Part shown: positions 30,001 through 36,000 of the stretch, in pieces
How positions within the stretch are numbered: the first letter of the stretch is position 1
Layout: the number at the start of each line of letters is the position of its first letter
Source: Enterobacteria phage phi80
DNA length: 46,150 nt
Strand: one strand, 5' to 3'
Sequence record: NC_021190.1
Program-made: the position numbers

Positions 30001-33000
30001 CTTCAGCTTTGCGCTGCTCTTCGACCAAACGGGCGGCTTCTGCCTCTTCCTGGCGGCGGCGCTCGGCGGCAACGGCTTCTTCTTTTTCGCGGCGCGCACG
30101 CTCTTCGGTTTCCTTCTTCTCGCGTTCCGCACGCTGTTCCGCTTCAATGCGCTGGCGTTCAGCCAGCTCTGCACGTGCTTTCTCTTCAGCTTCACGGCGC
30201 GCTGCGGCTTCAATCTCCGCTTTGTGCTTCGCTTCGGCATCTCGGCGGGCTTGTTCTGCTGCTTCGCGCTTAATGCGCTCTTCGTGCTCACGCCGAGCCT
30301 GTTCCGCCAGGCGGCGCTGCTCTTCGCGGTCACGGTCGAAATCCTTGTTCATCAGCAGAGCCATTTCGTGGTCTGCTTCGAACTTGGCCGCCAACTCCTG
30401 ATCGAACTTGATGTTCATTTCCAGCGCTTCGGCGTGCAGCGCGTTCATGGCTTCTTCAGCCTTAATGCGTTCCTGCTCGGCTTCCCATTCGGTGAGTGGG
30501 CGGCGGGTTGCGTCGCGAAGCTCGTCACATGCATCAACGAAACGCTTAATTTCGGCCTCAGCAGGTCGCACAGCCTCTTTCAGGCGCTTCAGGTACTCTC
30601 GGCCCGGCTTTTCAATTGCCGTCTTACTGCGTGATACCTGCGCTGCCAGAGAGGCGACACGGTCACGTCCTTTCTTCGTGGACAGGTCCGGCACTTCGTT
30701 TACTGCCTGGCGGATTTGCTCGAGATAAGCATCAAGGCCGCCCGCTACGTAAAGCACTGGGGCCTGTTCCGGCTTGATTTCGATGACAGTTAAGTCCGTT
30801 ACTTCGCTCATGGTTTCTCCTGAAATTTTGATGTGCAGATCTCGCCCTCTGGTGACAGGCAGCAGTTGAATTGGTTAAGGGTTATTTGCCTATGGATCTG
30901 AAAATGCGTATATGGCTAGTTGATTGCTTCGTTAAGCATTTTCTCTATAGCCAGCTTGCCGTCATTTATCTGAGCAACTTGCTTATCGAAGTTCTCTTGG
31001 TAGTGGGCGAGATTCTTTTCCGATGCAGAGAATAGGCGTTCTTTGATTTTTTGTAACTCATCCCTGCTGAAAACAATGCCCATATTGCGGCACTTTTTGA
31101 CATCATCAATGCTCAGGCCGTTACCATTGAGTTTTTCCAGGGCAATGCGCTTAACACACTGCCTGGCTTCTTCAATAGTCTTGTAGAACTCAACCGTATC
31201 GCTTCCACCACTGCCATCTGAATAGCAATTTACTCGTAAAGCTATATCTCCATTAGTGCTGCCCAAAAGAGATAAGCACTTGATACCTTCAAATTTCTTA
31301 CGCCCATAGTAGTTGTCAATTGAAGACATAAAATCTTCATATCTTTCAATGGACGGCACACCGTAATCACGACGAATGGCAAATTTAACCTGCCCGGTCA
31401 TTACATCTGCGAAATGGTCCAGGTCAGCATCATTGATATGATCTGAGAACGCTTTTACCTGCTTAACCATTTCTCTCCAGAAACTTAATGTATTCTGTAG
31501 GTTGCTAATTTCCGAGTTGATCTTTTCAATTTTCAACTTCGCATCAGCAAGGGCTTTTTCTTGTTTTGCTTTTTCACGAGACAACCATGATTCAACTGGC
31601 TGGTCATGTAGACTCTTCACCACAAAACGCTCGCCACCAGGGATTTCATCACCCTGCTGCGTGACAAACACTTCCTGGACGATCGTTTCCTGATTATTCA
31701 ACGCACCAACGACAACGACCTTACGGCCGTCAGAAAGAAATTTAGTTTCCATGACAAAGTCCTTAATGGGTGAGAGGGTTGCCGTGACCGTCCAGAAGGA
31801 CGTCAATCACGCAGTCACTGAGGCGGATGATTTCTGCGTCGGTGTGCAGGTAGACCCATTTGCGCTCCTGAATGACTGCTGAGACGCGATATGTGCGGCC
31901 TTCATGCAATGCCATCATGCCGGGCGTGACGCACTGGCGAATGAGCGGGGTGGTGCCGTAGTGGTTGATCATGCCTTCACCTCAACCTGTTCCAGGAGGC
32001 CAGCCAGCTTCATATGCCAGCGGTTCATCGTCAGCTTTTCACGCGGGTTAGATACCGACGTCAGCTGCCACTCGTTATCGTTGAGCTTTTTGGCGGTGTA
32101 CTGCTTGCCGTTGTGGGTGACTGTCATCTCACACCACCTTGAATAAGAACCAGCCCATACCGCACACAATCAGGCCCACAATGGTTATTGCGGAAGACAT
32201 GCGTACATGGTCAATGGCTAGTTTTGAAAGTGGCTGGCGATGTTCTTTTTTCGTCAGCGAGTTGATTGCTATGTCGAGCAGAAACGTCCCGACAAACCAT
32301 AATGCGTATATCTTTAAGCCCAACTCCAAATCACTCATAAATCCTCTTGGCCTTATCGCGGCGAACGGAACGGTTAATACAAGACTTCAACGCATTTATT
32401 CAGTGTTTCAATGGTCGGTGGATGGCCGCCGGTTGTCATAACTTGAGCCACTCGTAAATGACTCCAGGTATGAAAAAGCCGCTGGTTAGGCGGCTATTGA
32501 GGTTCGCGCGGCTTGTGGTCGAATCGGTGCCACCCGTCAGTTAATTCAAATGGAGCATAACTTTCCCGGCGCTCAGCGAACCCAAGCTCAACAGACAGAG
32601 CGTGCAGCTCATGCCGACGCTTAATCTGTTCCATCGCAATCCAGTCAGCATCGGCATTGCGCTTTTGAGCTTGCTTCGGCGACAGGTCTAAACTGTTTAT
32701 TTCACTTAGTTTCTGCTGACGCTTGATGTCCTGTTTCATATTGCGAAGCGCATTTATCATTGAGTCGATGCGCTTGATGTCGTCGATCATCCCCTTACCC
32801 TCTGTCGTTACCCGCTGATGCGGGAGAAATGCTTTGGCGATGTGGTAGGTGGGAGACCCATTTCGACCCGATTCGGCCTACTTATCTTCGGCAATAGCTC
32901 CTCGGGCCTCGCCGCTTTACGTGCGACATATTCCCGTCCATGAACCCTTCACCACATCCCATAACATTCCCTGTATTGGTCAGCGCCAACTCCCTGCCAG

Positions 33001-36000
33001 TGTTGCCCGTTCTCACGCCGTTCTCGCTCTCGCGCGGGGATACTCTCTCACCGACCGGATCGCACCCGGTGATACAGCACGTTTACGTGTAGGGGTCTTA
33101 ACAGGTCATTGACGCTGTAAATCTGCATGTTGTTAAAAAGCAGGCGACTTGCTGTCCGCCGCTGGCTAACTTCGCTCAGCTGTCGATGTTTCGTTTCGAT
33201 GGAGTAATTAAACATCATGTGGATTTGTAGGTCAACACCTTGTGGATTTATTTTGTTGATTTAATCGTTTACTGTTGATTTTTATGTTGATTTATTTTTT
33301 GGTGGCATAAGTGATATGCTGAAAAAAACATCAAAAAGGAGTGGGTAATGGACTTGGATGAAGAAAGAGTGAACATGATGGTTCACGCCATGGGGCGGGC
33401 GGTCATGGAGTTGTCACTGGCAGATTTACCTATGACCCAGCAAAACATCATCGACAAGCTGGAACGGTACCGGAAGGAAACGGGAAACGTGATAGGTAAG
33501 GGTGTGAACAGGGATGCAGCTGAGATAGTCAGGAAGGGTAGTAAAGCTGTGAAGTAGGCACAAAAAACCCGGCGCGGTGGCCGGTTGTTAAAGCTCAATA
33601 TCAACTATGAAAAGTTTACTAATAGCCCCTTTTCTAACTGCTGCTTTGGCAGTTACTTTTACCGCTGACTCATGACTTAGACCCGTTGACAGAAAACGAC
33701 TAAGTGAAATGAGATACGGGTTGTCTGCCTTTGAAGCAGATGGATCGCTTATTTGTGCTGAGATGCGCTTATCTGAATCATCACCTTCTATAATGACTTT
33801 AGCGGTCATTCGGTGAGCGTCGAATTCAGTAAGGAAGATTCGATACTCCCTTAAGCCAAGAACTTCGTCGTCGTCCAACTGGTCTATTACTGCTTTATCT
33901 TGCTCATCAATTACAGCAGGCTTGAAACCATTCCCCGGTGTGACGCTTATCTTATTACAGGTGGTACCGATGGGGGAAACTGCCTGTCTAACTGATGGGC
34001 GTAACTCACTAGCCATCTTGTCAATCACTGAGATTAGACCTGAGATGGTATCTTTATCTTTATTTCCGAGGGCCTCAATTGCCTTCTCAAGTGCTTCTTT
34101 TAGGTATTTCATTTCCTCTTTCTTCTGCGAGTTTTTAGCGAAGATATAAGGCACTAATGCGCCAAGTATAGCCCCCGCAGACCCTGAGAACAATTGAGAC
34201 TGACTGATAAAATTCATGATAGTATCAAGAGAAAAACAATTGGCCCTAGCTTCGGTAGCGTAAATTTTAACCTCTTGAGTTGAGGTGCTTCGCGAGTACT
34301 TTTGGGTTAATGCGAAGGTTCCAGCTGTAGCTAATATCTTCGAAAATCCCTTTAGCGATTCACCGAGCGAAGAAAGTTCAATCTCATGCTTTTCAGCATC
34401 CAAACCGTCATATCTAAGTGAAAAATTAACATCGTGTAAGCCAGTGTTTTCCATCAACAGTCCTTATATGCTTTCACCAAAACGTCTCATCAGGCCACCA
34501 TAAGCACGATCGCAACAACCGAGAGCAAAGTAACCACGCCTACTATCAGATATTCTCTCATCACCCAAACGTCTCTTCAGGCCACTAAAATTATCGGCGA
34601 TATCGCAATACCGAGTACCAGAACACAAAACCGATTATCTCGACATCTGCCTCATCGGCCTCTTCGTCGTCATAATCACGATTAATGCTTCTGATTAGAA
34701 TTTTTCCGCCTGGTTTGCGATAAAGTTGCTTGATGCGCTTCAGATCTCCCTGGTTGATGGCGTAGAGTTCGCCGTCAATAACTCGCTTATTACCAGTATC
34801 AACAGCTACAGTTGCACCATCAGGAATGACTGGCTCCATACTGTCTCCTGATGCAGGAAAACACAGGACACCAGAACCATCACTATTGGCTCCAACTCGA
34901 CGGAGCGTTGCTTTTGAAAAGCGCAATTTAAAACCGTTGTGATCCTCATCGTGTACTCGTCCATCACCACACGCAAACTCGATATCCTTCAGAAACGGTA
35001 CTTCCACCTCATCGTCAGGTAGGGGGGTATTTTTGTCCCAAGCGTCGACAGTTCCCCACTCAGACTCTGGCGGGATGTTGCTCTCCAGATCCTTCTTTGG
35101 AGAACCCTCTCCATTTAATAACCAGTCAAGAGAATAACCGAATTTTTCAGATATTTGTTGCGCCGCCTCACGACTTAACGCGTCTCTTTTTATCCAGTTG
35201 TTGACGGTCTGTGGGCTAGTCGACAAAGCCTCAGCCAAATCCCGCTGCTTCAAGCCTTCCCTTGCCAGTAAAAATTTAATTCTTTCAGAAATGCTGCTCA
35301 TAAAACCCTCCGCTCCATGCATGGTAAACAACATGTGGATTTTTTCCATCACCATAATGTTGATTTAATCCACGCCATGAATTAACATGGTGTTGATTAC
35401 ACATGAGCGGAGCAAAACATGATCAACAAAAAATCCAACGCCAGCACCCCGCTTGAGAAAGCCATTAATGCAGTGGGCGGCTCTCAAAAGGTGCTTGCTG
35501 AAAAGGTCGGCGTAACGCCTCAGGCCATCAATATGCTTAAAAAGCGAGGTGGCAGCCTTCCAGTAACAAAAATGCGTAAATACGAAGAAGTAACCGGACT
35601 TCCTCGCGAAGTTCTATATCCAGGTATCTTTGCCGCCTAACCGGCGGCTCTAACCACGAAATGGAAAGCAATGCATTCACTTGCGTATCAACACAATACC
35701 GGAATACACCCGGGAGCGATGATAAACCGCGCTCAACCTAAGGCGGAGCCAGGTCACGACAAAATCCGCGATGCGGTCCGTGCATGGTCGTCGTCCCTGG
35801 ACAATCAGGACGTAGTGTCAGCGCTGATCATCAACGAATACCGGGAGCAGGGCGGTACCGCCATCAGCTTCCCAGAAGACATCAGCAGGGCGCGCCAGAA
35901 ACTTTTTCGCTTTCTGGATAACCGCTTCGACTCCGATCAGTACCGCGAGAACGTTAGAGAACTGACCCCGGCAATCATGGCTGTTCTTCCTGTTGAGTTT

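Follow-up and report, generated by a model that had tools for sequence, protein, structure and literature searches.

Early antitermination in lambdoid phages is, to our knowledge, known in two forms only: the N protein with its nut sites, and the put RNA. The λ boxA is CGCUCUUA, and the λ N leader holds an RNase III-sensitive stem between nutL and the start of N; put is an RNA of ~70 nt whose two stem–loops act on the β' zinc-binding domain without Nus factors. Here we describe the leader transcribed from the early-left promoter pL of Enterobacteria phage φ80 (NC_021190.1; the window analysed is the whole phage genome of 46,150 bp, and the leader lies on its minus strand). The leader contains a boxA of the ribosomal-operon (rrn) type followed by a structured RNA domain of ~150 nt and eight helices, which together occupy 32979-33143. 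This element, 33143-32979 in the direction of transcription, is a widespread RNA family with a covariation-supported secondary structure, strand, position and copy number, and it is distributed independently of the 98-aa protein encoded by the first gene behind it, which φ80 records call N.

Like a λ nut site, the φ80 element is promoter-proximal in a pL leader, includes a boxA and is followed by terminators, and GenBank labels nutL and N at this locus. Unlike λ, its boxA follows the rrn consensus, it has the 150-nt eight-helix domain instead of a 15-nt boxB hairpin common to the right operon, it is present in single copy, and the protein called N is a predicted folded 98-aa protein without an arginine-rich motif (ARM) that is missing from most phages bearing the RNA. 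With the rrn leader (boxB–boxA–boxC, rrnTAC) it shares boxA together with its flanks, which are those of rrnH (CUGCUCUUUAACAAU), a hairpin that often stands before boxA, and an apparent lack of need for a phage-specific protein. It differs from the rrn leader in context, which is always the pL leader of a phage early operon with intrinsic terminators downstream, and in the large conserved domain after boxA, which has no rrn similarity beyond boxA itself. The put RNAs of HK022 and HK639 resemble it as structured cis RNAs of the early-left leader that are independent of an N-type protein, a function that is predicted for φ80; the HK639 putL-like RNA even lies where the φ80 element does, with the same blocks on either side, and the HK639 record annotates a left-operon element only. 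In contrast to the φ80 element, put has no boxA.

A covarying RNA domain behind an rrn-type boxA

The φ80 boxA, UGCUUUUUAACAA (33130-33142, minus strand), agrees with TGCTCTTTAACAA in all but one of its 13 positions, and a pattern scan at one mismatch or fewer to the rrn boxA returned no other site in the genome. The boxA of the Shiga toxin (Stx) phage PA2 is a perfect TGCTCTTTAACAA, TTTAACAA is without variation in all 39 representatives of the family described below, and the family boxA consensus CUGCUCUUUAACAAU is identical to the Escherichia coli rrnH leader over 15 nt, flanking bases included. In the consensus structure predicted by RNAalifold boxA is unpaired. Behind it, all on the minus strand, the domain is closed by P1 (33117-33108/32990-32981) and continues through P2 (33105-33097/33000-32993) and P3 (33094-33092/33008-33006) to the short hairpin P4 (33089-33086/33081-33078), the long hairpin P5/P6 (33077-33063/33057-33043), and P7 (33040-33035/33020-33013), which encloses P8 (33034-33032/33027-33025).

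The family was assembled from two pattern scans of a viral contig collection, each of which yielded at least 120 loci; the first pattern fixed P6 and the second fixed parts of P2, and each supplied half of the loci. The loci are mostly windows of no more than 15 kb, and the locus counts given throughout are counts among the matches listed. A scan of bacterial contigs, with one genome per species, found the element in Enterobacter, Kosakonia, Providencia, Xenorhabdus, Morganella, Citrobacter, Kluyvera, Huaxiibacter and Salmonella. A representative alignment of 39 sequences with less than 94% mutual identity was made with MAFFT, and RNAalifold predicted 24 pairs on it, 14 of them with compensatory double changes. 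The structure was completed by hand to 36 pairs in helices P2–P8. On the MAFFT alignment 96.1% of cells are paired under this structure and 20 of the 36 pairs are compensatory, a result that none of 500 shuffles equalled, and when the registers are slid by 1–3 columns pairing falls to 30–42%.

A covariance model built from the 39-sequence alignment (R1) matched exactly once per locus in 96 of 100 sources, and its match in φ80 scored 183 bits. Four pattern-scan loci, one on a viral contig and three in non-enterobacterial metagenome-assembled genomes, gave no R1 match and were taken as chance matches to the patterns. In the R1 alignment (96 sequences, 75 distinct) 97.2% of cells are paired and 23 of the 36 pairs are compensatory; again none of 500 shuffles was as good, and the slid controls reached 30–43%. 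This alignment was fitted to R1, and the counts based on MAFFT agree with it. Among the loci found with the second pattern, the apical helix P6 changes from CACCG/CGGUG to CAUCG/CGAUG, CACUA/UAGUG, CACCA/UGGUG and UAGCA/UGCUA. For the closing helix P1, eight or more unrelated pairs of complementary arms are seen. The conserved block contains indels of 1, 7 and 9 nt. Several G-U pairs are near-invariant, which makes the fold specific to the leftward, pL-sense transcript.

A preliminary description of this genome, made from the sequence alone, had suggested that early antitermination may rely on an RNA element or an unrecognised factor and had named structure prediction and covariation analysis as the means of checking it. 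The fold just described is what that analysis returned, eight helices with 23 of 36 pairs compensatory; the leader does hold an RNA element, but it is the boxA with its 150-nt covarying domain and not the small hairpin that had been pointed out near the ribosome-binding site. With filters off, R1 aligned the rrnH leader over boxA alone, at 10.6 bits, and a kinship with rrn leaders beyond boxA (the boxC region) was thus rejected. A kinship with the put RNA of HK639, the only put phage compared, was likewise rejected: BLAST matched the flanks and nothing in the middle, and R1 had no match in this locus.

The whole window has no match in Rfam 15 at gathering thresholds, and permissive searches of 32300-33700 gave chance-level hits only, at 19 bits or less. 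By BLAST the leader sequence is carried by 190 phage records, and the element is present in 244 of 5,426 complete E. coli genomes; the 30 records listed of those 244 carry no annotation of it. The φ80 N gene, nutL and tL1 have been in databases since 1985–88. For the multi-helix structure, its status as a family, the rrn-type boxA and the uncoupling from N we found no prior record in Rfam, in the annotations inspected or in the searchable literature; an earlier description elsewhere is possible.

The region 32400-33400 is 100% identical to M11919.1 ('Bacteriophage phi-80 cI immunity region encoding the N gene') and 99.7% identical to X13065.1 ('phi80 early region'), and the features of both records were placed by adding 32061 to their positions. 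The 'O-L region' of X13065 falls at 33200-33291 on the minus strand and comprises the OL operators and pL, whose hexamers were read from the sequence: a -35 of TTGACC (33235-33230), a 17-nt spacer and a -10 of TTTAAT (33212-33207), with +1 near 33200. A strict promoter scan of the window missed this site on account of the T at the second position of its -10 hexamer; the 'putative pL' annotated in HK639 aligns with it. Repeated operator-like 23-mers are common to OL and OR (repeat families D1 and I1). Since transcription should start near 33200 and the first ATG of the 98-aa open reading frame (ORF) is at 32790, the leader is ~410 nt long. The only minus-strand ORF lying fully within it has 44 codons and a GTG start (32882-33016), a 56-aa minus-strand ORF at 33048-33218 begins upstream of +1, and a scan of the leader for ORFs found no credible one. 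The leader of some 400 nt with no ORF of note that had been proposed is therefore borne out.

The element is tied closely to this position. Among 135 distinct loci listed, 84 have a σ70-like promoter within 140 nt upstream (5 of 135 for a control window), and the spacing between the end of the -10 hexamer and boxA varies little in the distinct loci listed, with 64 nt as its median. Upstream, 170 of 194 loci have a gene for a cI-like repressor, which is the sole protein family common to them; among the loci no ARM-type protein or other shared partner was found close to the element. The element is single-copy in every locus and is the only R1 match in the φ80 window, and a second, nutR-like copy was found by R1 neither in φ80 nor in any other locus examined. 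The φ80 pR operon (35400-38500) contains no boxA-like site and no k-mer of 10 nt or more in common with the leader core.

Of 111 distinct loci, 87 have one or more intrinsic-terminator-like sites on the sense strand in the 1.5 kb that follow, as against 45 of 111 for the antisense strand. In φ80 the first of these is the hairpin AGCCGCCUAACCAGCGGCU with a U-run (32495-32472), which the terminator scan placed on the minus strand directly after the N stop codon and which also stands 3' of unrelated first genes in 41 loci. Beyond it, the 'tL1 terminator' of M11919 maps to 32063-32432 on the minus strand.

The 98-aa protein called N and its distribution relative to the RNA

The gene at 32494-32790 (minus strand) is annotated in M11919.1 and X13065.1 as 'N protein / N gene (AA 1-98)', and the 'nutL regulatory signal' of M11919 maps to 32902-33179, a span that encloses the boxA RNA element. 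The statement of the preliminary description that φ80 has no recognisable N gene must accordingly be amended, since an ORF of that name was already on record; what stands is that its product is not of the λ type and that no other N-like early ORF is present. The protein has only two arginines in its first 25 residues, and neither it nor any other φ80 early ORF matches the Pfam N_peptide family, to which HK97 N matches at 1.7e-15. Both the absence of an arginine-rich motif that had been read from the sequence and the expectation that a profile search would find no divergent N-like protein are thus upheld.

The protein belongs instead to PF26859 (by precomputed assignment) and PHROG 25091, a widespread family with 60–86% identity across Enterobacterales and basic helices. 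Its AlphaFold (AF2) model has a predicted local distance difference test score (pLDDT) of 90 and consists of two antiparallel helices (2-30 and 38-69) and a β-hairpin (81-92). Searches against Pfam, NCBIfam, PDB sequences and PDB folds gave no significant match, and a kinship with coiled-coil proteins of the Gre/DksA type was rejected as a generic resemblance (E > 0.1). The lack of an ARM, the lack of an N_peptide match and the predicted fold place the protein outside the λ-type N family.

Its distribution differs from that of the RNA in both directions. By tblastn, homologs of φ80 N occur in only 20 phage records and are absent from Stx phages, PA2, KO-TP1, Edno5 and HK225; of the 190 phage records with the leader sequence only the two φ80 records also carry one. 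The family is absent from more than 90% of the phages that carry the RNA. A true N-family gene follows the RNA in ~8 of 124 loci listed, and the other apparent N matches among these were discarded as over-extended ORF calls that translate the leader. Conversely, R1 has no match in the N-homolog phages Erwinia 59, phage 26, Hafnia yong1 and Vibrio Seahorse; in Erwinia phage 59 the homolog stands beside a separate λ-N-like gene, and phage 26 is a virulent Kagunavirus. PA2 has no N_peptide match among its early ORFs, and Stx2 phages of the phi191/P13374 type have been reported to lack N (PMC4122784). Because the two distributions are uncoupled, and because the protein is predicted to be folded and has no significant neighbour in the PDB, the 98-aa protein is taken to be neither a member of the N family nor an obligate partner of the RNA. 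In φ80 it may act with the RNA or may do something else, and a function other than antitermination is conceivable for it.

Modules of the leader and neighbouring genes

Judged by its sequence relationships, the φ80 pL leader is a mosaic, whose modules appear to be regulatory RNAs. A junction block comprises the first ~45 nt of the transcript (33157-33200, minus strand) and is common to HK639 and Klebsiella phage KO-TP1; together with the end of the promoter (33207-33157) it is 94% identical by BLAST to positions 2493-2543 of the HK639 locus (L005). The next segment, 33142-32955, starts exactly at boxA and is found at ~94–95% identity in more than 150 Stx-converting phages (PA2, VT2phi_272, ArgO145, P13771, phi191 and others), whose records annotate nothing at its counterpart, and part of it is found at 80% identity in Edwardsiella phage Edno5.

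A GC-rich hairpin, GGCGGAC-AGCAA-GUCGCC (33143-33160, minus strand), lies directly 5' of boxA, so that hairpin and boxA follow each other as they do in the rrn leader, and with the U-rich boxA it is flagged as terminator-like. Many but not all relatives have a hairpin just 5' of boxA, with weak z-scores, and a conserved 'boxB' was rejected as statistically unconvincing. In leaders of the φ80/KO-TP1 type the boxA variant UGCUUUUUAACAA stands immediately 3' of the GC-rich hairpin GGCGGACAGCAAGUCGCC (33130-33160, minus strand), and the two jointly score as an intrinsic terminator ~60 nt into the pL transcript. Leaders of the PA2 type have a C in boxA and weaker hairpins. PA2 also has an intrinsic terminator, GACGCGCCAGCGTC with a T-run (L004 3430-3460, minus strand), between the boxA RNA and the first gene behind it, which encodes a Rha-like regulator.

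Downstream of the covarying domain, a second module (32832-32961, minus strand) is predicted to fold as a long-range stem of ~22 bp around ~90 nt and is homologous to N leaders of the HK97/933W type. It is 91% identical to HK97 (L006 1501-1630), where it ends 18 nt before the N ATG, and it corresponds to the stretch between the nutL boxB and the ribosome-binding site of N in HK97 and 933W-type phages. As its HK97 counterpart lies downstream of that phage's own boxB, GCGCTGACAAAGCGC, it is not the HK97 nut site. One A-U to G-C compensatory change distinguishes the stems of φ80 and HK97. The module is like the λ N-leader stem in lying between a nut-like element and a ribosome-binding site, and by this analogy a role in RNase III processing and translational control is possible for it; unlike the λ stem, that of φ80 and PA2 precedes genes that are not of the N type.

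The small hairpin CCCGC-AUCA-GCGGG (32811-32824, minus strand) is followed by the Shine–Dalgarno region GAGGGUAAGGGG, ending at ~32791. This is the hairpin that had been picked out in the DNA as CCCGC-TGAT-GCGGG; it is indeed present ~20 nt before the ATG, and it is one base longer than stated. A 5-bp hairpin taken alone could arise by chance, though this one is conserved in HK639 and KO-TP1 before unrelated genes. The block with hairpin and ribosome-binding site (32836-32795) is 95% identical to the sequence before the unrelated 149-aa HK639_44 and 93% identical to that before the unrelated 65-aa gp28 of KO-TP1, and of 123 related loci 79 have a matching hairpin pattern 3' of the leader RNA. 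The hairpin is a conserved junction element 5' of the ribosome-binding site of a hypervariable first gene. Across loci this gene is one of dozens of unrelated small proteins. The slot between the hairpin/ribosome-binding block and the terminator hairpin is filled by small, often acidic proteins (for example in loci L016, L050 and L089, and 32494-32790 in φ80), and it resembles a cassette-type hypervariable accessory locus.

The hairpin AGCCGCCTAACC(A/G)GCGGCT is present twice in φ80 and is the only sequence common to the left and right early operons. The left copy (32477-32495, minus strand) lies directly after the N stop codon and runs into a T-run; the right copy (35632-35649, plus strand) overlaps the stop codon of gene 30, which is cro-like, and has no T-run. 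Its loop, CUAACC, resembles the boxB loop of φ21.

Between cI and pL, where λ has rexAB, φ80 encodes a 289-aa protein with DUF7946 and DUF7947 ('gene 40A' of the record; 33588-34457, minus strand) and a divergent 69-aa ORF of PHROG 3975, function unknown (33348-33557, plus strand); PA2 has a restriction–modification pair between cI and its putative pL. The cro-like (35419-35640, plus strand) and cII-region (35671-36213, plus strand) proteins are, like those of the Rac prophage, of the YdaS and YdaT families and not of the λ Cro and CII families. An early-left protein of 322 aa (29843-30811, minus strand) has a long, highly charged centre rich in Glu, Arg, Lys and Ala and no Pfam match, and alternative frames of its gene yield spurious Arg-rich ORFs.

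Proposed role and competing explanations

From its position, the identity of its boxA and analogy with known systems, we would give an even chance to the boxA-linked domain being a cis-acting antitermination RNA that recruits Nus factors on pL transcripts. On this proposal boxA would emerge ~55–60 nt after the start of transcription and be bound by host NusB/S10, binding that we infer because the sequence is identical to that of the rrn boxA. The folded domain would remain tethered to the elongating polymerase and stabilize a complex that resists termination; it could do so through contacts of its own with RNA polymerase or the Nus factors, or as a platform for a protein. Transcripts from pL would then pass the first-gene terminator (32495-32472) and tL1 into kil, gam, recT and other downstream genes; the 98-aa N would not be an obligatory partner of the RNA, and may add to the effect in φ80. 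There is reason to think that such a complex is most likely nucleated here, given an rrn-grade boxA, a fixed promoter-proximal position, a conserved terminator behind a variable cassette, and the 'nutL' label of 1985. The strongest positional argument comes from HK639, which has a φ80-like start block, hairpin/ribosome-binding block and terminator region and, in the same slot between them, an annotated 'putL-like antiterminator RNA'.

A number of points weigh against this proposal. Its functional part rests on position, boxA identity and analogy, and the enrichment of downstream terminators is moderate (78% against 41%). Complexes of the rrn boxA type act far more strongly against Rho-dependent than against intrinsic terminators; for this reason boxA by itself would be insufficient for hairpin-plus-U terminators, and the folded domain would have to supply an extra activity or a protein platform. 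A single copy per phage, with the pR operon lacking one, is unlike the logic of nutL/nutR or putL/putR. If the mapping of N, nutL and tL1 in M11919 was functional, antitermination in φ80 may require N, and, with most loci in windows of 15 kb or less, the RNA may have a phage protein partner that is distant and unlinked. The covariation in P2 and in P6 each rests on loci from the other pattern.

One alternative is a classical N–nut system, in which the domain or one of its hairpins binds the 98-aa N, antitermination in φ80 is strictly N-dependent and the RNA is inert alone. M11919 and X13065 both name the ORF N, M11919 adds nutL (32902-33179) and tL1, the gene follows the leader directly in φ80, and the protein family is strongly conserved (60–86% identity across Enterobacterales) with basic helices. 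Yet the RNA and the protein are uncoupled, with N at ~8 of 124 RNA loci and in 2 of 190 leader-bearing records, both of them φ80; four N-homolog phages, among them a virulent Kagunavirus and one with a λ-N-like gene, lack the RNA; and the protein has no ARM and is predicted to be folded, while the pR operon holds no second copy of the RNA. We consider a classical system unlikely. On another reading the N sites proper are the two GCCGC-CUAACC(A/G)-GCGGC hairpins, after N and at the end of cro, and the leader domain is unrelated to N. These hairpins are the only sequence that the left and right early operons share, the right copy lies just after cro in the position of λ nutR and has no U-run, and the loop is like the φ21 boxB loop. 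But the left copy runs into a stretch of U and was picked out by the terminator scan, it stands after unrelated genes in 41 loci, most of them without N, neither copy has a boxA beside it, and the temperate N-homolog phages have other terminator hairpins after N. This reading seems very improbable.

The element might also be a riboswitch-like sensor or an abundant early noncoding RNA acting in trans, for instance as a decoy for a defence system or a factor of the host, with boxA merely shielding the leader from Rho. Its size, its multi-helix junction and its many invariant unpaired nucleotides are typical of RNAs that bind ligands or proteins, it lies in the 5' leader of a strong early promoter, and the slot just downstream is hypervariable in the manner of accessory or anti-defence gene slots; in many relatives the ribosome-binding site of the first gene comes ~15 nt or less after P1. 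A conserved alternative pairing that could serve as an expression platform was not found, however, nor was a match to an Rfam riboswitch or small RNA; the distance to the next ribosome-binding site or terminator varies from ~15 to more than 400 nt, and the invariance of boxA at a fixed distance points to the elongation complex. We regard a sensor or trans-acting RNA as rather improbable. That the conservation reflects protein coding, such as the antisense 87-aa ORF at 32849-33112 (plus strand), or a site at the level of DNA, can be given hardly any weight. An antisense ORF of 50 aa or more does overlap the element in 143 of 194 loci, but the conserved block contains indels of 1, 7 and 9 nt, its substitutions are paired and compensatory instead of falling at third codon positions, and a fold of the opposite strand would have A·C mismatches in place of its conserved G-U pairs. 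On the indels and compensatory changes a protein-coding leader was rejected for either strand.

The proposal of a cis-acting antitermination RNA can be carried a step further, though more tentatively. The domain could join put and EAR as a third class of antiterminator RNA, independent of any phage protein, in which an rrn-grade boxA loads the Nus factors and the domain replaces N against intrinsic terminators. In that case the antitermination device that is missing from the early operon of N-less Stx2a phages would be this RNA (the O104:H4 P13374/phi191 and O157 PA2 types), and φ80 'N' would be a different factor or no antiterminator. We think this wider claim possible but doubtful.

Whatever its mode of action, the practical yield is a new RNA family, defined by its alignment, consensus structure and covariance model, for which the phage and E. 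coli records inspected have no annotation. The protein that has long gone by the name of φ80 'N' is evolutionarily and structurally unrelated to N proteins and uncoupled from the RNA, and its function merits re-examination. If the antitermination role is correct, the φ80 leader would represent a third design of antitermination, in which the boxA of ribosomal operons is joined to a large folded RNA, and it would offer a testable candidate for the switch that turns on the early-left operon in N-less Shiga-toxin phages, including the phage type of the 2011 O104:H4 outbreak.

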